Shown here: in pieces, positions 9,751-63,998 of the stretch | Layout: the number at the start of each line of letters is the position of its first letter | How positions within the stretch are numbered: position 1 is the first letter of the stretch | Position numbers and translations under genes: made by a program | Source: Nanobdellota archaeon | GTDB taxonomy: Archaea > Aenigmatarchaeota > Aenigmatarchaeia > QMZP01 | Length of the DNA: 64,000 nucleotides | NCBI GenBank assembly: GCA_043814765.1 | Contig: JBDRJQ010000029.1 | Location: forward strand, 115,600 to 179,599 | Reading direction: 5' to 3' | The notes under the pieces: generated by a model | What the model saw: only the letters and a program-made list of their open reading frames with translations | Database searches by the model: none | What the model was told of the DNA's origin: nothing

Positions 9751-12228
9751 TCACCAGTTACCATCAGGCGGGAACTTGGTTATGAAAGCATCCCAGCCGC
9801 CGTGAGATGAGCGTTCATCGACAGTTAGACCAGGATCGAAGTCAGATATGCCTGAAAATGCACCAACTATAAACACGTCCCCCAAGTTGTTAGATGATAT
9901 TCCATAGCCAAAATCCCAATTCGTGCCGCCCCATGTTCGCGCCCATATGAAAGTGCCTGAAGAATCGAACTTTGAGAGGAAAGAATCATATCCTCCAGTG
10001 GATGTATATTCACTGATTTCTGTGGTTGGGTCGAAGTCAGACGTACCTAAAAAGGCACCGGTGACGTAAATGCTATAATTGTTTATGGCAACTCTTCGCG
10101 GTTGATCGTCATCAGGACCGCCCCATGTTCGCGCCCATATGAAAGTGCCTGAAGAATCGAACTTTGAGAGGAAAGAATCATATCCTCCAGTGGATGTATG
10201 CTCATCGCTACCTGAGCTTGTATCGAAGTCTGCAGTTCCTTTAAATTGTCCTGTCACATAGATGCCTGATTTTTCTGAAGCGACCCCCCAACCACAATCT
10301 TCATCCAAGCCGCCCCATGTTCGCGCCCATTGGAAATTGCCATCTGAGTTGATGACTGTCAGATAGGCATCGGTGTCATTTGCTATGTGATCACTAGTGC
10401 CTGTGCCTGGATCAAAGTCAAGAGTACCCCGGAACTTACCTGTCATATATAAATTATTCTCATAAAAATCCATTGAAAATATGAAGTCAGCAGATTCATT
10501 TCCCCAAGTGCAAACCCATTGGAATTCACCTGATGAATTGAACTTGCTGAGAAACACGTCCTGAAATCCGTTAGCGGTTCGCTTGGTTTCTCCTGGACCT
10601 GGATCAAAGTCCACTGTTTTATTGAAATTGCCGCTAACATAGATCTCATCATAGTTTCCGATACTTACGCTTTCGCCGTAATCATCAAGTATTCCAAATC
10701 CCCCACTTCCCCAGGTTCTTGCCCAGAGGAAGTTACTGTTTTGGTCGAACTTGCTCAGGAAGACATCACGATCGCCATTTGAGGTGTGAAAATCCTCGCC
10801 ATTTGTTGGATCAAAGTCAACTGTCCCTTCGAACCATCCTGTGACATAGATGTTTCCTGAACTTTTGTCAACTATTATGTCACCAACACCCTCATATTCT
10901 GTCCCGCCCCATGTTTGCGTCCATTGGAAGTTTCCATCCAAATTGAACTTGGAAAAGAAACAGTCTCTTGCACCATTTGAGGAGTGCTCCTCAATCTCAG
11001 GACTTGGATCAAAATCGACTGTTCCTGAAAACTGACCACCAAGGTAAACATTGTTTTCAGTGTCAGTTGTAATCCTCCGACCATAATCATCACTGGTTCC
11101 GCCCCAAGTCCTTGCCCAACCGTTCTTGTGTCCAACTTCGATTGTGTGAACCTGCCAAGCATCCACAGCGCCAAAATGTGGGTCAAGTTGGGTATCAGTC
11201 ACTCTGACAAGTAGCGGATATTCGCCGATGGGGACGCCCATCTCATTGACAACTACGCCCTTGTAGATGGCACCGCTGTCAATCGATATTTCGCCGGAGA
11301 ATTCAATTTCAACCTCTCCATTAAACAGCTGGGGGGACTCAATTGTAACCTTGCCTATGCTCGAAAAACCCTGGTGGTCGCGCACCTCAATTTCTATGTA
11401 CGCTTCTGCACCAGCGCTGGTCTCCAGCCCGGCACCGACCTGCACCTGAATCTCATAAGATTCGCTGCAGTTCGCTTTTAGTGGGAAGTCAGTGACGGGA
11501 TTTGTCACCGGCTCTTTTGTGGGCGGAGCCCATGAAGCGTCCACAACATAGCCGAAGTGAATTGGTCCAGCCGGCTTGCGGATGTGCACGGTTCGCGTCT
11601 CGGTACTGCCAACCTGGAACATCCTGCGCTGGTTGTCCTTCCCATAACTTACAAAGGGATTCAGTGTCGCAGACAGGTCATTGGTTCCGCAATACTTGCC
11701 CGAGATATATCCAAGGCACGGTGGAGCTGTTGACGGAAATTGCGTCGGGTTGAACAGTCTTGTGTACCCATCCGCGTTGATGAGTCGTGGAAAATAATCT
11801 CCCCAAGCGATTCTGCAATCGCTCACAGGGAATTCATAATCTTCGTCTGTAATGAATATCCCGCGGACATCAAATCCAGTGTATTTGGTGAGACCAGGAA
11901 ACGGATGCATAATCTGAAGATCAAACACCCAATTATTCGGGTCGATGACCTGGAAGTTCTTGACCTTCAGGCAATTTCCACAGGGGTTGTTCTCAAGCCA
12001 TTGCAATGCATTGAAATGCATCTCTGCACTTCTGACAGGGACGATTTCTGCCTGGCCATCTTCTGAGATTTCTACATCCCAGTAGCCCCAGATGTATTTG
12101 TTGCTATCAACACAAATTGGAGCTGAAAGCTCCTTGCTCTGAGGGCTTGCAGGGTTCTCTAAGCCGCCGGAGCATGAAGCGATGATTAATGCGACCATCG
12201 CTGTAAGAATGAGGTATGTGGTTCTCAT
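9751..12228 (-). CDS. Lipoprotein with C-terminal SBBP-type beta-propeller repeats (bacterial-like)
   Basis: Lipobox IIAS-C, repeats of WARTWGG...YVTGxFxGTVDFDP...DxFLSKF, SD AAGGAGG, and visibly higher GC than the flanks. Confidence 0.8.
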   Translation of the reverse strand: MRTTYLILTAMVALIIASCSGGLENPASPQSKELSAPICVDSNKYIWGYWDVEISEDGQAEIVPVRSAEMHFNALQWLENNPCGNCLKVKNFQVIDPNNWVFDLQIMHPFPGLTKYTGFDVRGIFITDEDYEFPVSDCRIAWGDYFPRLINADGYTRLFNPTQFPSTAPPCLGYISGKYCGTNDLSATLNPFVSYGKDNQRRMFQVGSTETRTVHIRKPAGPIHFGYVVDASWAPPTKEPVTNPVTDFPLKANCSESYEIQVQVGAGLETSAGAEAYIEIEVRDHQGFSSIGKVTIESPQLFNGEVEIEFSGEISIDSGAIYKGVVVNEMGVPIGEYPLLVRVTDTQLDPHFGAVDAWQVHTIEVGHKNGWARTWGGTSDDYGRRITTDTENNVYLGGQFSGTVDFDPSPEIEEHSSNGARDCFFSKFNLDGNFQWTQTWGGTEYEGVGDIIVDKSSGNIYVTGWFEGTVDFDPTNGEDFHTSNGDRDVFLSKFDQNSNFLWARTWGSGGFGILDDYGESVSIGNYDEIYVSGNFNKTVDFDPGPGETKRTANGFQDVFLSKFNSSGEFQWVCTWGNESADFIFSMDFYENNLYMTGKFRGTLDFDPGTGTSDHIANDTDAYLTVINSDGNFQWARTWGGLDEDCGWGVASEKSGIYVTGQFKGTADFDTSSGSDEHTSTGGYDSFLSKFDSSGTFIWARTWGGPDDDQPRRVAINNYSIYVTGAFLGTSDFDPTTEISEYTSTGGYDSFLSKFDSSGTFIWARTWGGTNWDFGYGISSNNLGDVFIVGAFSGISDFDPGLTVDERSSHGGWDAFITKFPPDGNW
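9926..10199. repeat. Exact 82-bp direct repeat (9926-10007 and 10118-10199)
   Basis: The two copies are identical, 192 bp (64 codons) apart, and encode TSTGGYDSFLSKFDSSGTFIWARTWGG. Confidence 0.93.
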
Positions 12229-55164: not shown

Positions 55165-55247
55165 TGCTGCGCCCAGAACTAATGCTACTAAAATAGGTAT
55201 GTTAAAACTATTGCTGCGCCCAGAACTAATGCTACTAAAATAGGTAT
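55165..55247. repeat. Exact 36-bp direct repeat (55165-55200 and 55212-55247)
   Basis: TGCTGCGCCCAGAACTAATGCTACTAAAATAGGTAT occurs twice, 11 bp apart, spanning the Yip1 stop codon. Confidence 0.93.
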
Positions 55248-55754
55248 TAAGATTGCAACCACAACGGTGAGTGCTGCCTTGTCGCCTTTCATTCCATGAA
55301 GTGCTTTCAAGCCAAGGAACTGCAGGAACAATGACCATATACCGAATACCATGCCAATTATTGGCAGTCCACCGAAAACATTAGGCGTCTGTGCATAAAA
55401 TACTGTTTTAATGGTTTGTTTTAATCCTTTCTTAGCTCCAAACAGGTATGCAAACAAATGTATCCACAAACCGCCTAGTAATGAAAAGATTATTGATCCC
55501 ACATAACTCCAAACGAATATGAATACAGGATTATATAATAATTCCATTCCTGGTGTTTTATATACTTCTGGTACTGAAAAAAGTGGTGTTATTGTGAATG
55601 ACCACACAGCGGCCAATATTGATGATATAAAGAACAGTATAAGAGCATACTTGAAAGCATCTCCAAGAGTAGTGTTTTTTTCCTTTGCGAATGTTTTTGT
55701 TGGTTCGACTAAAAACCCTTTAAACTTTTTAAAGAAATCCTTGCAGATTTTCAT
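55188..55754 (-). CDS. Yip1-domain membrane protein
   Basis: FLVEPTKTF, about 5 TM helices, YAQTP, GLKALHG. Confidence 0.82.
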   Translation of the reverse strand: MKICKDFFKKFKGFLVEPTKTFAKEKNTTLGDAFKYALILFFISSILAAVWSFTITPLFSVPEVYKTPGMELLYNPVFIFVWSYVGSIIFSLLGGLWIHLFAYLFGAKKGLKQTIKTVFYAQTPNVFGGLPIIGMVFGIWSLFLQFLGLKALHGMKGDKAALTVVVAILIPILVALVLGAAIVLTYLF

Positions 55755-56231: not shown

Positions 56232-58910
56232 ATGGTGTTTTCTATGTTAGAGTTTCAGTTACTAGATGTAGACTATGTAATCGTGAACGAAAAACCAATA
56301 ATAAGAATGTTTGGTAAAACTGCTTCTGGTGAAAGCGTGTGCGGTTTTCATGAAGGGTTTTCTCCATATTTCTACACAGAAGGAGAAGAGGCTAAAAATC
56401 TTCTAAAAAAAGAACCCGTGGTTGTGAGCATAAAGGAGGTTGAAAGGATACCTGTTAATGGTTATATGGACAAGAAGAAAGTTTTGAAGGTTGTTCTTCA
56501 AAACCCATCAAAAACCCCTGAGATAAGAGAAAGGCTGCACGCAGCTGGCATAAAAACATATGAAGCAGACATACTGTTTAAGTATAGATTCATGGCTGAT
56601 AACAATATTGCTGGTCATGACTGGATTAAAGTTATTGAAGGCAACATGACTAACACTAGTACTGTTAACACTCGCCTAAAGATTGATATAAAAAAGTTTA
56701 AGGTTTTTAAAAAAGAGGAGGATACTCCGTTAAAATATCTGGCTTTTGATATAGAATGCGTTCCTATACGATCAGGAACGATGCCCGAAGCAAAAAAGGA
56801 TCCTGTTATAATGATATCTCTTGTTTTTAGTAGTCCATATAAAGGTAAAAACGCCATGGTGCTAAGCAACCGTTTAGGGAACGGAGCAACTTATTTTGAA
56901 ACAGAAAAAGAAATGCTTAAGGAGTTTTTGAGCATAGTAGATACTTTTGATCCTGATATACTAACAGGTTATAATCTAAATGATTTTGATATACCATATA
57001 TGTTGGAAAGGATGAGAGTTCATCATATAAAACCGTTGTTTGGAAGGTGCAATCAAAAACCAACAATGGCCAGAAAAATAATGAGCAGACATAAGATATC
57101 AGTTGTCGGTCGAATTATAGTGGATAGTTTTGAATTGATAAAAAAGGATTTTTCTCTAACCAGATACGGGCTTGATTTTGTTGCCAACGCCTTGTTAGGT
57201 GAAAAAAAAGAGGATGTTAAAAAATCAGAAATAGAGAAGCTCTGGAAAGGTTCGCAACAAGATTTTGATAGATTAGTGAAATACTCTGAAAAGGATTCTA
57301 TTCTAGCTCTAAATCTTGTATTAAAACTGAATCTTATTGATAAATACCTGGCTCTTGCAAGAGTATCGGGGGTTTTATTGCAAGATTCCCTTAACAGTGG
57401 AGAAACGGTTCGCATAGAAAATTTTTTGCTGCGTGAGTTCAACAAACAGGGGTTTATTTACTCACAAAAACCAAACCAAACAGAAGTTGATAAAAGAGAA
57501 CAACAAAGAAGAGTTGAACTGAAAGGTGGGTTTGTTATAGAACCTGTGAAAGATCTTCATTCTTCTGTTTTTGTTTTGGATTTTAAATCAATGTATCCGT
57601 CTATAATAATATCTTTCAATATATGCCCAACAACTATTCTTCCTGATAACATCGAGATGAAAAACGCTATCAAAACCATTACAGGCAGCAGATTTGTTCC
57701 ACCAGAGGTGAGAAAGGGTATACTACCAAAAATTCTCGAAGAGCTTATGGTAAAGAGGCAGGTTGCTAAAAAGAAAATGAGTTCTGCTACTGATAAAGAA
57801 AAAAAGAGGGTGTTATTTGCAAAACAATGGGCACTGAAAATAATGGCAAATGCTATTTATGGTCATACTGGTTATCCTAGAGCTAAGATATACAATCTTG
57901 ATATAGCGAATACTATAACAGCGTGCGGAAGAGATACTATACACAAAACACAGGAGATTATAGAAAATAAATACAAACTTCAGGTTGTTTATGGTGACAC
58001 AGATTCTGTTATGGTTAAAGTCGATACCGAAGATATGGAAGAAATAAAGAGGATAGGAAATCAGATATCAGATGATATAACTAAAACTCTGCCTGGCGTT
58101 ATTGAATTAGAGTTCGAAAAGATATTCAAACGTTTTCTTCCCCTTGCTAAAAAACGTTATATGGCATGGAAATTTGAGCTTATCAATGGTGAATGGAAGG
58201 ATAAATTAGAGATGAAAGGCATAGAAACTGTTAGAAGAGATTGGTGCATGCTGGTTTCAGAAACAACCGGTACTATAATAGAAATAATATTGAAGAGGGC
58301 TGACATAAAGGAAGCAGTTGATTATTTTAGAAACACTGTTCAAGAATTGGTTAAAGGTAATGTGGATATAAGCAAACTCATAATAACAAAAACCATGACC
58401 AGACAGCCTGAAAATTATGAAGGTATTCAACCACATATAGAACTTGTTAAAAAAATACGCGCAAGAAATCCTGCAGAATCTCCTGGTATTGGTGATAGGG
58501 TTGGTTATGTTATAGTAAAGGGTATCGGACTGCTATCAAAAAGGGCTGAGGACCCTGATTACATTAAAGAGAAGGGCCTTCAGATAGATTCTCAATATTA
58601 TATAGAAAATCAATTGCTTCCGCCACTTGAAAGAATTTTTAATGTTTTAAGAGTCTCAAAATCAGAATTGTTTGGAAGGGGCAAACAAACATCTCTTTTT
58701 GATATAGCAAAATTTAATGGAAACGATTTTGTTAAAATAAAACCGCCCAAACAGCTACAAGAAATTAGTTTAGATTTGGTTGATGGCTTCATATGTAAAA
58801 TATGCAACAAGTCGTATGAAATACCTCCTCTTATAGGCACGTGTACGTGCGGGGGTGAGGTTTTATTATCTTCACCGCAAGGGCCTGTTGGGAGAGCTAT
58901 TGTCGGTTAA
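56232..58910 (+). CDS. polB: Family B DNA polymerase with PIP box and C-terminal C4 zinc finger
   Basis: Exo I FDIE, Exo II GYN..FD, DFKSMYPSII, KIMANAIYG, YGDTDS, KKRY, QTSLF, then CKIC-x12-CTCG. Confidence 0.96.
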   Translation: MVFSMLEFQLLDVDYVIVNEKPIIRMFGKTASGESVCGFHEGFSPYFYTEGEEAKNLLKKEPVVVSIKEVERIPVNGYMDKKKVLKVVLQNPSKTPEIRERLHAAGIKTYEADILFKYRFMADNNIAGHDWIKVIEGNMTNTSTVNTRLKIDIKKFKVFKKEEDTPLKYLAFDIECVPIRSGTMPEAKKDPVIMISLVFSSPYKGKNAMVLSNRLGNGATYFETEKEMLKEFLSIVDTFDPDILTGYNLNDFDIPYMLERMRVHHIKPLFGRCNQKPTMARKIMSRHKISVVGRIIVDSFELIKKDFSLTRYGLDFVANALLGEKKEDVKKSEIEKLWKGSQQDFDRLVKYSEKDSILALNLVLKLNLIDKYLALARVSGVLLQDSLNSGETVRIENFLLREFNKQGFIYSQKPNQTEVDKREQQRRVELKGGFVIEPVKDLHSSVFVLDFKSMYPSIIISFNICPTTILPDNIEMKNAIKTITGSRFVPPEVRKGILPKILEELMVKRQVAKKKMSSATDKEKKRVLFAKQWALKIMANAIYGHTGYPRAKIYNLDIANTITACGRDTIHKTQEIIENKYKLQVVYGDTDSVMVKVDTEDMEEIKRIGNQISDDITKTLPGVIELEFEKIFKRFLPLAKKRYMAWKFELINGEWKDKLEMKGIETVRRDWCMLVSETTGTIIEIILKRADIKEAVDYFRNTVQELVKGNVDISKLIITKTMTRQPENYEGIQPHIELVKKIRARNPAESPGIGDRVGYVIVKGIGLLSKRAEDPDYIKEKGLQIDSQYYIENQLLPPLERIFNVLRVSKSELFGRGKQTSLFDIAKFNGNDFVKIKPPKQLQEISLDLVDGFICKICNKSYEIPPLIGTCTCGGEVLLSSPQGPVGRAIVG

Positions 58911-60129
58911 GATAATTTCTTATTCTGCCAACACCTTCTAAAATATTCTCTTCTGAAGTTGCATATGAAAATCTTATAAATTCGTTTTCTTCGTTCGGTC
59001 CCTTGGAACCAAAATGTTCTCTTGCTAGAACAGAGACTCCTGCTTCGTAAAGAAGTTTTTTTCGTAAATCTGATGCATCTTCAAAGGGATTTCCTTCTCC
59101 ACACAGCTCTGTCACATCAGGAAAAACATAAAAAGCTCCATCAGGCTCTGGACAAAATATTCCGTCAATTTTATTAAGCTCGCTCACTATCAAATCTCTT
59201 CTTTTTCTAAATTTGTCAACCATACTATAAACGCATGACTGATCGCCTTTCATCGCAGCAATCCCTGCTTTTTGTATAAAACCAGGAACACATGCAGACG
59301 TGTTAACCATCCACTCAGAAATAGCATCTGTGTATTTGGGTGATGCAACACCAAAACCAAATCTCCAACCGGTCATAGCATACGCCTTTGAGTGACAGTC
59401 TACTAGTATCGTTCTTTCTAGCATGCCAGAAAACTGTAAAACTGATTCAAAACCATCTCTGTAAATAATTCTACTATAAACTTCATCAGACATAACCAAG
59501 GAATTGTGTTTTTGTGATAACCCTGCTATTTCCTCAAGATCATCTTTTTCAATAATCTCTCCAGTTGGGTTATGTGGTGAGTTTAATATTATCATCCTAG
59601 TTTTGTTGTTTATTCTTTTTTTCAGTTCTTCAACACTGTTGTAAGGAATTCCTCTTCCTTCTGCTGCGTTAATTGCTGATATGTAAATGGGGTAACCAGG
59701 ATTAGGGTAAAGAACTTCTTCTCCCTTACCAATAGTTGAAAAAATTCCAAAAAATATTACAGGTTTGCCTCCGGGGGTAATCACAACATTTTCAGGTCCT
59801 ATATCACCATCAACCTTCCTATATTTTGGTATAAACTCTGCGACAGCCTCTCGACATTCCATAATACCATGGGAGGGAGTATATCCAGTATCACCGTTGT
59901 ATAAAGATTCAATCGCAGCATCTATGATGTGTTCAGGTGTATTAAAATCTGGTTGTCCTATATGCATTTCTATTATGTCTTTGCCTTGTAATTTAAGCTT
60001 TTCAACTTCTCTACTAACTTCAAAAGCAGTTTCTCCACCAAGCCTGTGCATTATAGGAGCTAGTGTGTTTTTGTTGTTTGCGTTAAAAACTTTTTCAGTT
60101 TTTTTATAATCAAGTTTTTTAACCTCCAT
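58897..60129 (-). CDS. Class I/II PLP-dependent aminotransferase (aspartate aminotransferase-like)
   Basis: IGQPDF, NSPHNPTG, SDEVY, SKAYAMTGWR, IRFSYA. Confidence 0.92.
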   Translation of the reverse strand: MEVKKLDYKKTEKVFNANNKNTLAPIMHRLGGETAFEVSREVEKLKLQGKDIIEMHIGQPDFNTPEHIIDAAIESLYNGDTGYTPSHGIMECREAVAEFIPKYRKVDGDIGPENVVITPGGKPVIFFGIFSTIGKGEEVLYPNPGYPIYISAINAAEGRGIPYNSVEELKKRINNKTRMIILNSPHNPTGEIIEKDDLEEIAGLSQKHNSLVMSDEVYSRIIYRDGFESVLQFSGMLERTILVDCHSKAYAMTGWRFGFGVASPKYTDAISEWMVNTSACVPGFIQKAGIAAMKGDQSCVYSMVDKFRKRRDLIVSELNKIDGIFCPEPDGAFYVFPDVTELCGEGNPFEDASDLRKKLLYEAGVSVLAREHFGSKGPNEENEFIRFSYATSEENILEGVGRIRNYLNRQ

Positions 60130-60249
60130 ATATAACGGAATATCTGTGTATTTTATATTATTTTCACATATTCATTATATTCACATACCATCAACACTAT
60201 GAAATATATTCAATTTGTGAGCAAATCCACATTAACTTGACAATTTCAC

Positions 60250-60344
60250 ACCCCTTCATTTCATGTGGAGACTATTTTATGTGTATTTCACGTTTAAACT
60301 GGTTCCATGTGAAATAAGGGGGTTTCCATATGAAACAGTGGGGT
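60250..60344. promoter_or_regulatory. ORB-like origin recognition boxes (candidate oriC)
   Basis: CTCCACATGAAATGAAGGGGT (minus, 60250-60270), TTCCATGTGAAATAAGGGGGT (60303-60323) and TTCCATATGAAACAGTGGGGT (60324-60344), inside an AT-rich 320-bp intergenic region. Confidence 0.8.
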
Positions 60345-60448
60345 GAGCTCAAAAAATCCCTAAAAGTTGCCTTTTTCACATCTTTCACAAAGTGTTCATA
60401 AACAAGGATTTCTCGGTAACATCACGCGATATTATGGTAATATGAACT

Positions 60449-61675
60449 TCATAGGCCTAGTAGTGATGATATTATATAACTATACCCAGAAAAATACAAT
60501 ATTGTTGGTAATATAAGGAATCCCATGAGATGGGTTCTCTTTATTCCAATTATAATCGTGAATAGCCCTATGAATGTTCCTGTTATAGCTATTAACACTC
60601 CGATAGGGCCTGTGAAGATTAAAACCAATAACACAAGCCCTGTTATTATTGCTAAAGTAAGTTTGTTATAGTTTATGTTTACCATTCTCTTAACTAAAAA
60701 TTTACCTATCTTAAGTGTTATTATAACAGAAATGAAACATGTTGTAGCCGCAACCACCATGAGCACAATCATATCATTGATTATAAGAGTATCTGTTATT
60801 TGTGAAATTGTCCACACAGCACCTGAACGCGTTTTTCCAATTGTGTAAAATACTACCAGTGTGAATATTATGTTTGCTGTGTTTATACCACCTAACGCAA
60901 TAAGGAAATCCTTTATTTCTGTTTTAAGTGTCTGCGCTGCAATAATACCTGCCTGTGCAGCTCCTATTCCTGGTAATAATCCTGCTAGCATACCAGCTAG
61001 CCAACCAGTGACAATTCCTTTACCCCCCCCCCCAGTGACATTCACAACATCAGTCTGTGGAGGTATCGTTGTTTTATTGTAAAAACTAACAACTAGTGTG
61101 CTAAAAGCGAAAAGTCCTGTGAAGGCGGGAAATAATGAAAAACTTGAAGGAAAGGAGTTGATGGTTATCAAACCAAAAACACCAACTAAAAGAAATGCTA
61201 AAAGCGCATAGATTTTATCTTTACCGGTTTCTGTAAAAATCATCCATGCAACAATTATCAGGAGTATAACATGAATAGAACTGTATATGAAATCATATAT
61301 GAAAGGTATAAGATATAGAAGAAGTGGCAGCGTTAATATTGTTAGCAAAACAACGCCAAACCCGCCAAGAGTTGTTAAAAACAACGCTTCATATCCTCTT
61401 CCCTCCATAAGAAATTTATGCCCTGGTAAAACCGAGAGTGCTGAATCTGGTTCAGGTGCTCCAAAGAGTATTGAGGGTAAAAAATCAGTGAACGTGTTTG
61501 AAACTGCAAGAGATACAATAAAAACCAAAACAGGCAGCAAACCAAAACTTAAAAGAACCGTAGATAGTGAAAGAGATATTATGAAAACTGTGTTTGGATG
61601 CACTCCTGGAATTAACCCCGTAATGACTCCAACACCTATTCCTAGGAGCATAAACCCTATCAACAACAAGAACAT
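60449..61675 (-). CDS. TctA-family (tripartite tricarboxylate transporter permease / DUF112) membrane protein
   Basis: TGLIPGVHPN, PSILFGAP, LPGH...GRG, GLLPGIG, GKTRSG. Confidence 0.85.
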   Translation of the reverse strand: MFLLLIGFMLLGIGVGVITGLIPGVHPNTVFIISLSLSTVLLSFGLLPVLVFIVSLAVSNTFTDFLPSILFGAPEPDSALSVLPGHKFLMEGRGYEALFLTTLGGFGVVLLTILTLPLLLYLIPFIYDFIYSSIHVILLIIVAWMIFTETGKDKIYALLAFLLVGVFGLITINSFPSSFSLFPAFTGLFAFSTLVVSFYNKTTIPPQTDVVNVTGGGGKGIVTGWLAGMLAGLLPGIGAAQAGIIAAQTLKTEIKDFLIALGGINTANIIFTLVVFYTIGKTRSGAVWTISQITDTLIINDMIVLMVVAATTCFISVIITLKIGKFLVKRMVNINYNKLTLAIITGLVLLVLIFTGPIGVLIAITGTFIGLFTIIIGIKRTHLMGFLILPTILYFSGYSYIISSLLGL

Positions 61676-61698
61676 AATTTGGTTTTGATAGTAAACAA

Positions 61699-62613
61699 TT
61701 AATTCATGAACTCTACTTTTTTGGTTGATAGATCAATATTAGCTGATCTGTTTCCTGTAGAAACTATAGTAACGCCTTTGTAATTTTTAACATATTCTTC
61801 TTCACCAACTAGCCAAAGAATGTCTGGTATCGGGTCAATTATGAATATATCTTCGTCGTATTTAATTTCATTTCTACTTGGAGAAAGATGTCTCTTCTTA
61901 AGAAATTCCACGGCAACGTCCTGCATAATTGGCTTTTCTGGCTTGAAAACTAAAATAACAATTTCGCTACTATTCCTTTTTATTTTGATTTTAGCTGGAA
62001 CTACTACTGATTTTGTTGTAGAGTTTATAGATATGCTCCAGTCATCCTTGTTTTTTAATAATGATATTTCTGTGTCTACTATGTTTGGTTTATGTGTTAG
62101 TGGTATATCAGGATATACTACTTCCTTTACTAAAAACTTTCCTTCTCTAGATGTGCCAATAATGCATATAACATCGCCTATCAACAAATCGTTGTTAGTA
62201 ATAATCTCTAAACTGCCTGTTTGATCTTCCATAATAAAACCATTCTGTGTTCTTTCCTTAATCATTCCTATTATGTTTGAGGTTGATGTCAATTCTTTTG
62301 CTTTGTTTATTGAAACTGCATTCAATTTCCTAATTAAAAGGTCTCTAATTCCGCTGTATTTTTTATTATAGTAGTTGATGAAGTCTTTTGGTTCCATTTT
62401 GGTTTTTTTATTAAAGGGTTTTATGTCAAAAATAATAGCGGTATCTTCTTTCTCTATGTTGGTTTCTGGTTGCTTTTTAATAGAATGCTCTGATTTGTTT
62501 TTATGGGTTTCAAGCATTTTCAAATAATTAGACTCGTTTATATTTTCAAGCTCTTTTGGCTGCAAAAGAACCCCATTTTCCATAAATATTTTAACTATTT
62601 CTTTCTTTTCCAA
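61699..62613 (-). CDS. Degenerate PolD small-subunit (DP1) homolog lacking the phosphoesterase active site
   Basis: OB fold (IIGMI...EDQTG), YPDIP, C-terminal LKKRHLSP...IPDI...YKGVTIVSTG. No SDxHxG, GD, GNHD or GHxH motifs. Directly downstream of cdc6; TTG start with an AGGTGA SD. Confidence 0.75.
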   Translation of the reverse strand: MEKKEIVKIFMENGVLLQPKELENINESNYLKMLETHKNKSEHSIKKQPETNIEKEDTAIIFDIKPFNKKTKMEPKDFINYYNKKYSGIRDLLIRKLNAVSINKAKELTSTSNIIGMIKERTQNGFIMEDQTGSLEIITNNDLLIGDVICIIGTSREGKFLVKEVVYPDIPLTHKPNIVDTEISLLKNKDDWSISINSTTKSVVVPAKIKIKRNSSEIVILVFKPEKPIMQDVAVEFLKKRHLSPSRNEIKYDEDIFIIDPIPDILWLVGEEEYVKNYKGVTIVSTGNRSANIDLSTKKVEFMN

Positions 62614-62636
62614 ATAATCACCTAATCGCTAAATCA

Positions 62637-63839
62637 TCACAACCGCATTGAAAAGTTACTGTTTAATGTTTGCCTTATTTTTTTCATGGTTGCTTCGGGA
62701 AGCTGCATGTTTATTTCTCGCGTTCTGCCATATCTACCTTTTGAAATTACTCTCGCGTTTATAACACCCAGCATATCGAGTTCTCCTATAAGATCTGTTA
62801 TTCTTCTTTGTGTTAATTCCTTTAAACCGGCTTCAGGAACAATCTTCTCATAAATAGAAAAAATATCCCCTGTTTGTATGTTTTTTTGACCAGAATCCAT
62901 TAAATTTATGATTGATGCGAGAACAGCTTGACTTTGTTTTGGTTGGGTTTTTACTATCTCTACTATTCTGTCTGAATCTAGTTTGTGTTCGGCTTTATCA
63001 ACATCTTCTATTTTTACTTGGTTTGCATTTCTTCTTTCAGATATTTCCACTGCCATTCTTAGTAAGTCTAGCGCTCTTCTAGCATCACCGTGTTCTTGTG
63101 CAGCAAGAGCAGAGCACTTTTCTATAACGCCAGGCCCTATAGCTCCTGATTTAAATGCAAGATTAGCCCGCTGTATTAAAATGTCCTGCAGTTGTGACGC
63201 ATTATATGGCGGGAAAATTATTTCCTCTTCAGATAATGAAGAACGAACACGAGGGTCCATGGTATCTGTAAAGGATATATCATTAGAAATTCCTATAATT
63301 GATAGTTGTGTGTTCACTAGTTCCTGATTTATCCTCGTAAGATTGTAAAGTATATCATCACCTGTCTTTTTCACTAACGTGTCTATTTCATCAAGAACCA
63401 GTATAACGTTTTGTTTTTTTGAGTCTATTAATTCAAAAAACCTCCTATATACTTGATCTGTTGGAAGTCCTGTAGAAGGAATTTCCTCACCAAGGTTTCT
63501 TATAAGCTCAGCAAAGAGCCTATACTCAGTATCAGAAACCTTTTTCATTTTACAATTAACAAAAAGTACACAAACATTGTCAGATGTTTTTTTTAGTTCG
63601 TTCATTATATTTTTTGTAACCAAGGTTTTACCTGTTCCTGTTTTGCCATAAATGAAAACATTTGATATTCTTCCTCCTCTGGCGCTTGGAGCAACTATAC
63701 TAGCCAAGTGTTTTATTTGTTCATCTCTATGAGGAACTGTCTCAGGGGTATATCTAAAGCTAAGAACATCCCTATCCTTAAATATAATATCACCGCCTTC
63801 AAATCCAGAAAGCATGTCCTTCAGTGTTTTTTGAACCAT
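62637..63839 (-). CDS. cdc6: Orc1/Cdc6 replication initiator
   Basis: HRDEQI, GKTGTGKT, VLDEID, RVRSSL, HGDARRALDLLR, winged helix SKGRYGRT. Confidence 0.97.
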   Translation of the reverse strand: MVQKTLKDMLSGFEGGDIIFKDRDVLSFRYTPETVPHRDEQIKHLASIVAPSARGGRISNVFIYGKTGTGKTLVTKNIMNELKKTSDNVCVLFVNCKMKKVSDTEYRLFAELIRNLGEEIPSTGLPTDQVYRRFFELIDSKKQNVILVLDEIDTLVKKTGDDILYNLTRINQELVNTQLSIIGISNDISFTDTMDPRVRSSLSEEEIIFPPYNASQLQDILIQRANLAFKSGAIGPGVIEKCSALAAQEHGDARRALDLLRMAVEISERRNANQVKIEDVDKAEHKLDSDRIVEIVKTQPKQSQAVLASIINLMDSGQKNIQTGDIFSIYEKIVPEAGLKELTQRRITDLIGELDMLGVINARVISKGRYGRTREINMQLPEATMKKIRQTLNSNFSMRL

Positions 63840-63873: not shown

Positions 63874-63998
63874 CTCTATATGAAATCAAGGTTTAAATTG
63901 TTTGTTGAAATTTCATATAGAGTTCAAATACCTAGTACACCTTATTTTCATATGGAAATGATTTGTTCTCAAAAATAAAAATATCGTTTCATATGGAA
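63874..63998. promoter_or_regulatory. Second cluster of ORB/mini-ORB-like boxes upstream of cdc6
   Basis: CTCTATATGAAATCAAGG (plus, 63874), CTCTATATGAAAT (minus, about 63910-63922), TTCCATATGAAAATAAGGTG (minus, about 63938-63957), TTCCATATGAAAC (minus, about 63986-63998). Confidence 0.75.

Follow-up and report, generated by a model that had tools for sequence, protein, structure and literature searches.

A DP2-type zinc finger on an aenigmatarchaeotal family-B DNA polymerase, and a nuclease-dead DP1 encoded beside cdc6 as its probable partner

Introduction

Does a family-B DNA polymerase (PolB) of this archaeon work together with an inactivated relative of DP1, the small subunit of the archaeal replicase PolD, as a two-subunit replicase? 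The question is raised by a 64,000-nucleotide stretch of a Nanobdellota archaeon genome (assembly GCA_043814765.1, contig JBDRJQ010000029.1, positions 115,600 to 179,599 of the forward strand; all of it is called 'the window' below). This stretch encodes a PolB that ends in a zinc finger resembling one in DP2, the large subunit of PolD, and, not far away, a DP1-like protein of 304 amino acids (aa). An initial reading of the DNA from its letters (the sequence-only reading) had proposed that the two proteins form a heterodimer that parallels the eukaryotic replicative polymerases. We consider it highly probable that the pair is the two-subunit family-B replicase of Aenigmatarchaeota, taking the place of PolD. 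We favour a heterodimer because the finger is homologous to the zinc finger of DP2 known as Zn-III, the DP1-like protein is catalytically dead, no DP2 was found in the genome, the distribution of the tailed PolB is complementary to that of PolD, the two genes are linked, and a prediction of the complex passed its controls. As explained below, a pair of this kind is already known for the phylum.

Results and discussion

The polymerase and its C-terminal tail

The PolB gene (56232..58910, + strand) is an open reading frame (ORF) of 892 aa that matches the Pfam models DNA_pol_B (E=2e-113) and DNA_pol_B_exo1 (E=3e-39); one public gene call (P0022) places the start at M5, which gives 888 aa. The translation contains FDIE, NxxDFD, YSEKD, DFKSMYPS, KIMANAIYG and YGDTDS, which we take to be the exonuclease motifs Exo I-III and the polymerase motifs A-C. 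The polymerase and 3'-5' exonuclease motifs are thus both intact.

An internal box resembling those of PCNA-interacting proteins (PIP), QTSLFDIA (aa 819-826; 58686..58709, +), lies N-terminal to the finger. Its Q819 (nt 58686) is invariant in all 27 PolBs that were aligned, and PolB may bind PCNA through it. The linker that follows (58710..58787, +) is variable in length and sequence and is predicted to be disordered; when the tail was predicted alone, the predicted local distance difference test (pLDDT) score was below 50 at tail residues 28-45. The linker leads into the predicted zinc finger of DP2 Zn-III type (aa 853-879, F853-L879; 58788..58868, +), which has the pattern C855-x2-C858-x12-C871-x-C873 and a putative docking loop at aa 862-869. 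All four cysteines, as well as L867 and G869, are invariant in the 27 tailed PolBs. These positions are exactly those given by the sequence-only reading, which had the polymerase continue past a PIP box near 58686 into a cysteine finger at 58788-58868. The remaining 13 residues (aa 880-892; 58869..58907, +) are predicted to form beta strands, here called the C-terminal strand, and the tails of relatives run about 13-25 residues past the finger. No helical bundle C-terminal to the finger was seen in the tail alignments of the window PolB and its relatives. Folded alone, the tail reached a mean pLDDT of 60.2, with the finger as short beta strands at pLDDT 74-80.

The tail is 44-63% identical to those of aenigmarchaeal PolBs, and its named relatives belong to Aenigmarchaeota or Aenigmatarchaeota. 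In the search for related loci, the PolB query led only to two distant PolBs of Micrarchaeota (28-30% identity).

Several relatives have tailed PolB reading frames of 1300-1800 aa (for example G173:C16, G191:C41, G079:C2 and G195:C34). One tailed relative, P0042, contains intein domains of Pfam, and the window PolB is without an intein; inteins seem to be common across this lineage of tailed PolBs.

Homology of the finger to DP2

A search of the Protein Data Bank (PDB) with the single PolB tail returned three DP2 chains as its top three matches (E=0.016-0.054), in an alignment that covers residues 1121-1156 of Pyrococcus abyssi DP2. With a profile of eight tail sequences, DP2 entries were reached at E=7e-9, 6e-7 and 6e-7, and the fingers of HypA came next at about 1e-3. 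An hhalign comparison of 27 tails with four DP2s of the same class gave a probability of 96.9% (E=2e-10) over 36 columns, which place PolB 851-886 on DP2 1022-1058 (of 1105). The reverse search, with a 1105-aa DP2 against the whole genome, had a single match, a weak one (E=0.06), of DP2 1023-1062 on the PolB tail. DP2 has about 47 extra residues C-terminal to the finger. By these profile matches, the PolB tail is a homologue of DP2 Zn-III, and the likeness of the cysteine pattern to the DP2 finger that the sequence-only reading had noticed is thus borne out. The same reading had also suggested comparing the tail with the C-terminal domains (CTDs) of the eukaryotic polymerases. Here only the DP2 half of the expectation stood: the PDB search with the tail profile returned no CTD of Pol alpha, delta or epsilon (CysA/CysB) at E<=10, so a link to CysB is not shown at the level of sequence.

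A minimised, nuclease-dead DP1

The DP1-like protein (61699..62613, - strand; 304 aa) is a minimised, nuclease-dead small subunit of PolD, equivalent to a eukaryotic B-subunit. Pfam gave no match for it, neither to PF04042 nor to Metallophos. The NCBIfam DP1 model NF003118 matched at E=1e-24 over profile positions 4-222 of 481, that is, over the N-terminal and oligonucleotide/oligosaccharide-binding (OB) part. Its sole sequence match in the PDB is the DP1 of Thermococcus kodakarensis (E=1e-4), in an alignment that spans the OB fold as well as the final portion of the phosphoesterase domain, with residues 232-294 on DP1 433-500.

Structure prediction strengthens this assignment. An AlphaFold2 model made with a 38-sequence alignment reached a pLDDT of 92.2. 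In a Foldseek search with the model, P. abyssi DP1 took the first nine places, ahead of B-subunits (those of Pol delta, epsilon, alpha and zeta), which matched at E values of 1e-8 to 1e-5. VIA-align superposed 239 residues on P. abyssi DP1 190-614 (5ihe_A) with Z 18.7 and a root-mean-square deviation of 3.2, and gave Z scores of 14-17 for the eukaryotic B-subunits p50, p59/Dpb2, p70 and Pol31.

The protein can be divided into three predicted parts. The N-terminal helical domain (aa 1-43; 62485..62613, -), with helices at 3-12, 19-23 and 30-43, aligns with the N-termini of intact DP1s and is therefore called DP1N-like here; a disordered linker (aa 43-54, pLDDT <50) follows it. The OB fold (aa 98-168; 62110..62322, -), which is assigned from structural matches to OB domains, contains the invariant residues E129 and D130. 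These two residues, together with P168 and R241, are common to all 38 aligned sequences, including active DP1s. The phosphoesterase remnant (aa 169-304; 61702..62109, -) was compared with three intact DP1s of 485-494 aa from another family of the class (f11, see below), which keep all five catalytic motifs, presumably the DxH, GDxxD, GNHD, H and GHxH motifs of calcineurin-type phosphoesterases. Motifs I-III fall within a deletion of about 180 residues, and both the histidine of motif IV and the GHxH of motif V are replaced. Alignment and model thus support the view that the 304-aa protein is a folded, conserved and catalytically dead DP1, in agreement with the sequence-only reading, which had called it a dead remnant.

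In public records it reads 'hypothetical protein'. The closest named record is labelled 'Nanoarchaeota archaeon', and the nearest Atlas clusters are of Candidatus Aenigmatarchaeota. P0017, a DP1-like protein of 283 aa that carries the label 'Candidatus Hodarchaeales archaeon', is sister to the DP1-like protein of a genome from the window's class (L031, family f17), with support of 99/86, inside a clade with 100/100. The tree of DP1 and DP1-like proteins has one sequence from outside the class as its outgroup, and we draw no evolutionary direction from it. P0017 could come from a mis-binned contig or from a transfer; the mirror case, Asgard contigs in aenigmarchaeal bins, is described in PMC12680538.

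Predicted complex

Residues 70-304 of the DP1-like protein and 800-892 of PolB were submitted to complex prediction, each with an alignment that we made ourselves. The interface score (ipSAE) was 0.80 (0.80, 0.77 and 0.80 in the separate runs), as against 0.01 for the best of three controls; this level was attained in 116 of 157 solved complexes and in 2 of 215 mismatched pairs. The runs agreed on no less than 76% of contacts, and the pLDDT of the partners was at least 64. This outcome favours the heterodimer that the sequence-only reading had put forward.

The confident interface comprises PolB residues 844-853, 862-869, 876-879 and 887-892, and residues 70-86, 117-120, 129-133, 145-146 and 247-251 of the DP1-like protein. 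It includes the invariant E129/D130 on the DP1-like side and the invariant L867 on the PolB side. These residues would thus place the docking loop and the C-terminal strand of PolB on the junction of the OB and phosphoesterase domains. In PolD, the Zn-III loop sits in an acidic groove between the OB and phosphoesterase (PDE) domains, and the affinity of a 20-aa Zn-III peptide for DP1 is in the nanomolar range (PMC6355029). The predicted docking site agrees with the PolD structure. PolB and the DP1-like protein probably bind each other in this organism.

Distribution in the genome and in the class

The assembly (859 kb in 39 contigs, 88% complete) contains a GINS gene (G000:C27:19680-19988). 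Profile searches of this genome gave no match to DP2 (PF03833) or to PF04042, and an intact DP1 used as a query found no second DP1, only the 304-aa remnant. A second, canonical PolB of 806 aa (G000:C37:41774-42961; locus L002:346-2766) lies on another contig. Its exonuclease and polymerase motifs are intact; it ends in a PIP-like sequence at the C-terminus and is without the zinc finger.

We surveyed 201 genomes of the class, with the window's own genome (G000) included in the totals; because kin are not independent, the figures are to be read as counts and not as statistics. DP2 was found in 17 of the 201 genomes, namely in 16 of the 17 genomes of family f11 and in one of family f19; the window's own order, with 37 genomes besides this one, gave no match. 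The tail query matched 189 genomes, with only weak matches in f11. Outside that family, the alignment extends through the finger, and the frames are of about 880-930 aa, some of them longer (presumably because of inteins). In all five f11 genomes looked at in this respect, the tail query splits: its residues 6-56, from the thumb, match a PolB of 762-773 aa, and in four of the five its residues 78-114, from the finger, match the DP2 frame. A single DP1-like query matched 176 of the 201 genomes, and all five misses that were re-tested were recovered by a profile. Frames of the DP1-like gene measure about 290-330 aa in genomes of the own order; most other families have frames of 340-400 aa, and f11 has frames of 478-525 aa. 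From these counts, PolD with a long DP1 and a tailed PolB with a short DP1 thus appear as alternatives within the class. The survey that the sequence-only reading had called for, including the search for a separate intact DP1/DP2, thus bears on its proposal favourably.

The lone DP2 match outside f11 (G182:C64:998-1843, locus L015) is on a contig of about 3 kb in an f19 genome that also has a tailed PolB; it may reflect contamination or a rare retention. In two f11 genomes (G093:C9:6189-6335 and G087:C48:24192-24338), there is one in-frame TAG within the region that matches the end of the canonical PolB of 773 aa.

Gene linkage and origin-like repeats

In the window, the gene order is PolB, an aminotransferase, a 320-nt gap, TctA, the 304-aa ORF and orc1/cdc6. 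The orc1/cdc6 gene (62637-63839, -) is identified by NCBIfam NF001625 (E=3e-153, above the cut-off) and by the Pfam domains Cdc6_C and Cdc6_lid. The DP1-like gene starts 23 nt after the cdc6 stop and is separated by 2.8 kb from the stop of PolB, towards which it is convergent; the sequence-only reading had placed it correctly, directly after cdc6 and about 3 kb from PolB. The genes between are a class I/II aminotransferase (58897-60129, -) and a TctA-family membrane protein (60449-61675, -).

The same reading had set the DP1 remnant between two clusters of origin recognition box (ORB) repeats, and repeats are indeed present on both sides. The motif TTTCATATRGA, which was derived from the sequence upstream of cdc6, presumably resembles the canonical ORB core. 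Four exact copies lie upstream of cdc6 (63875..63997), in a cluster that is cut by the contig end, as both window and contig end 161 nt beyond cdc6. A second cluster of three copies, two of them followed by G-runs, lies at 60259..60335, within the 320 nt that separate the aminotransferase gene from the TctA gene. With up to one mismatch allowed, the motif occurs 19 times in the window, as against 5.8 expected, and none of 100 shuffles reached 19. A slightly looser version is found immediately 5' of cdc6 in 10 related loci. A general repeat search of the window returned no ORB families. Cumulative GC skew tracks gene strand here, and no origin was called from it.

A further pair of ORB-like motifs, each with one mismatch (TTTCATATGGG), is found at 9942-9952 and 10134-10144 on the same strand, 192 nt apart. 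This pair is far from cdc6 and could be another origin-like or regulatory site, or due to chance.

Gene linkage is tighter in other families. In all seven loci compared (from seven genomes of six other families), a DP1-like gene (300-362 aa) is followed by a tailed PolB gene (878-908 aa) on one strand, tightly packed, and in six of the seven, cdc6 is directly upstream of the DP1-like gene; the seventh locus starts at a contig end. The origin operon of Pyrococcus has the order cdc6-DP1-DP2. The operon order cdc6-DP1-PolB of the other families puts PolB into the slot of DP2 in a Pyrococcus-type operon. In the own order, the DP1-like gene directly follows cdc6 in 11 of 11 loci, and PolB and the DP1-like gene are convergent and 1.5-5.1 kb apart in 28 of its 37 other genomes. 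Among the remaining genomes, the two genes share a strand in two (at distances of 4.8 and 6.5 kb) and are on different contigs in five; a further genome is without either match and another without the tail match.

A proposed two-subunit replicase

These findings suggest the following scheme, in which the tailed PolB may be the main replicase. An ancestral DP2 would have been lost, while its DP1-docking Zn-III would have been kept as a module of about 40 residues that a flexible linker joins to a complete PolB, behind the PIP-like box. What would remain of DP1 is a scaffold of 304 aa, in which the DP1N helices and the OB fold are combined with a gutted phosphoesterase core without catalytic motifs. 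The finger loop (aa 862-869) and the C-terminal strand would dock at the OB/phosphoesterase junction, much as DP2 Zn-III does on DP1. PolB would then provide polymerization, with proofreading by its own exonuclease, and its PIP-like box would bind PCNA. The DP1N-like helices (aa 1-43) may bind the C-terminal domain of Gins51 and so tether PolB to the Cdc45-MCM-GINS (CMG) helicase. In T. kodakarensis, the DP1N domain of DP1 binds Gins51C, which parallels Dpb2-Psf1 of yeast (PMC9023282).

Several observations weigh against this scheme. The basic pair in the docking loop of DP2 (KxRRxP), which is R1131/R1132 in P. abyssi (PMC6355029), is replaced by E-I in the window PolB, so the interface must differ in detail from that of PolD; among the relatives, 10 of 27 keep R at the first of these positions and 20 of 27 keep R or K at the second. 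The helical bundle that aids the binding of DP1 in PolD, and of the B-subunit in eukaryotes, is missing from this PolB. Since related complexes of DP1 with DP2, and complexes of B-subunits, have been solved, the pass in complex prediction may reflect memory of the model, and the input alignments were our own. The published yeast two-hybrid interaction (see below) concerns other Aenigmatarchaeota, outside this organism. Within the own order, PolB and the DP1-like gene are not co-transcribed, as two genes and an ORB-like cluster lie between the convergent pair. Because the genome is 88% complete and in 39 contigs, the absence of DP2 falls short of proof. Lastly, the second PolB, which is apparently active by its motifs, makes the role of the tailed PolB as the main replicase uncertain.

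This last point leads to an alternative that we regard as unlikely: the pair may bind as proposed, with the 806-aa PolB (contig C37) replicating the chromosome and the tailed complex serving a specialised purpose, for instance in lagging-strand, initiation-proximal or repair synthesis. The intact motifs and C-terminal PIP-like end of the second polymerase would suit this division of labour, and it is established that several PolBs per archaeon are common (PMC7544198). On the other hand, in those six of seven loci of other families, the tailed PolB stands in the place of DP2 in the cdc6-DP1 operon near the origin; it is present in nearly all genomes of the class (189 of 201) with a distribution complementary to that of DP2, and DP2, where it is present, is the essential replicase (PMC6355029). 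We think it considerably less likely still that the DP1-like protein acts without PolB, for example as an adaptor at the origin or CMG together with Cdc6, and that the PolB finger contacts DNA or other proteins. Such a role would fit the position of the DP1-like gene right behind cdc6, with PolB on the opposite strand, in the own order. It would also fit the loss of the RR pair, and the location of Zn-III in PolD, where it adjoins the nascent duplex at its minor groove (PMC6355029). It is hard to reconcile with a complex prediction that is strong, reproducible and clean in its controls, with invariant residues on both sides of the predicted interface, with the co-occurrence of the two genes and their operon elsewhere in the class, and with the two-hybrid interaction published for Aenigmatarchaeota (PMC12680538). 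Almost no weight is left for the view that the 304-aa ORF is a decaying, functionless relic of DP1. It is true that every catalytic motif and about 180 phosphoesterase residues are gone, that Pfam is silent and that public records say no more than 'hypothetical protein'. A relic would hardly be expected to keep uninterrupted frames of about 290-400 aa in most matches across 176 genomes (with the re-tested misses also positive), a confidently predicted fold, and several invariant or nearly invariant residues in common with active DP1s.

Relation to known polymerases

The two-subunit replicase proposed here corresponds to a system that has been published before. Kazlauskas et al. (2020; PMC7544198) described a PolB group, B6-aenigma1, with a DP2-like zinc motif, reported that DP2 is absent from most Aenigmarchaeota, defined an inactive 'Aenigma' group of DP1, and proposed a eukaryote-like replacement of DP2 by the aenigmarchaeal PolB. 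A study of 2025 (PMC12680538) reported that Baldrarchaeia and Aenigmatarchaeota lack DP2 and retain DP1. By AlphaFold3 and yeast two-hybrid analysis, it found that aenigmatarchaeotal DP1 binds PolB-DP2CTD and does not bind canonical PolBs; the aenigmatarchaeotal CTD is called shorter and 'degenerate' there. These published features, and the affiliation of the relatives with Aenigmarchaeota or Aenigmatarchaeota, make our finding an instance of the published system, and the pairing of such a PolB with a dead DP1, which the sequence-only reading had singled out as possibly new, has in fact been known since 2020. The window shares the single Zn-III-like motif, the inactive DP1 and the failure to find DP2 with the B6-aenigma1/'Aenigma' DP1 system, from which nothing essential differs, and the published two-hybrid and AlphaFold3 result agrees with the complex predicted here (PMC12680538). 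The window PolB would accordingly be a member of the B6-aenigma1 system, an assignment that rests on homology of the tail, without placement in a tree among B6 references.

Compared with PolD (P. abyssi 6HMS/6T8H and T. kodakarensis 6KNB), the pair has a homologous Zn-III, the same OB and phosphoesterase sandwich, a DP1N-like N-terminus, predicted docking at OB/PDE, and the origin-proximal linkage of cdc6 and DP1. It differs from PolD in that the catalytic subunit is of family B and not a two-barrel DP2, for which no gene was found in the genome. The DP1 is without nuclease motifs and about 180 residues shorter, there is no helical bundle, and RR is changed to E-I. With the eukaryotic Pol alpha, delta, epsilon and zeta, it has in common a family-B catalytic subunit together with an inactivated second subunit of DP1 type, a PCNA-type motif before the metal-binding tail, and the structural similarity of the 304-aa model to B-subunits (Z 14-17). 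Unlike the eukaryotic CTD, the tail has a single C4 motif, hence no CysA, it is without a helical bundle, and a disordered linker precedes its finger; the equivalent of the B-subunit is far smaller, and there is no CTD sequence similarity at E<=10. The PolB3 of Baldrarchaeia carries a fused full CTD of DP2, in a lineage without DP2 that has kept DP1, and binding was seen by two-hybrid analysis (PMC12680538). In comparison with it, the aenigmatarchaeotal CTD is shorter and has another predicted structure (PMC12680538, Extended Data Fig. 6 legend), and in the window it consists of the finger alone.

What the window adds

The main texts of PMC7544198 and PMC12680538 contain no description that we could find of the operon cdc6-DP1-PolB, of how far the deletion in DP1 reaches, of the loss of RR in this sublineage or of the convergent split arrangement in this order, nor of the 'before' state in f11 with its split tail query. 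The word operon occurs once in the main text of PMC12680538, for RFC genes, and the main text of PMC7544198 has no wording on synteny. Details that may thus be undocumented are the operon synteny, the minimal interface, the f11 state, how much of DP1 is deleted and the loss of RR in this order; such details refine a known story and do not open a new one. A bolder claim, which we consider possible but rather doubtful, would be that the own order has the most reduced interface known between a catalytic subunit and a B-subunit, formed by a zinc ribbon of about 40 residues without RR and a scaffold of about 235 residues with an OB fold and half a phosphoesterase, and that the operon and the DP2-holding sister family with its tail-less PolB record a swap, in place at the origin, of the body of DP2 for PolB.

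The pair would be an analogue, in a living archaeon, of the design used by eukaryotes, in which an inactivated B-subunit of DP1 type holds a family-B polymerase, and thus bears on the origin of Pol alpha, delta and epsilon from parts of PolB and PolD. That significance is itself in print, from comparative genomics in 2020 and two-hybrid analysis in 2025. To this the window adds a well-resolved example, a class-wide count of PolD versus the PolB tail, the synteny of the operon, and a predicted interface of very small size, which could be a convenient target for structure determination.

A repeat near the polymerase gene

The gene for a Yip1-domain protein (55188-55754, -) has at its 3' end a perfect direct repeat of 36 nt (55165-55200 and 55212-55247, spacing 47), which duplicates the codons of the last transmembrane stretch.

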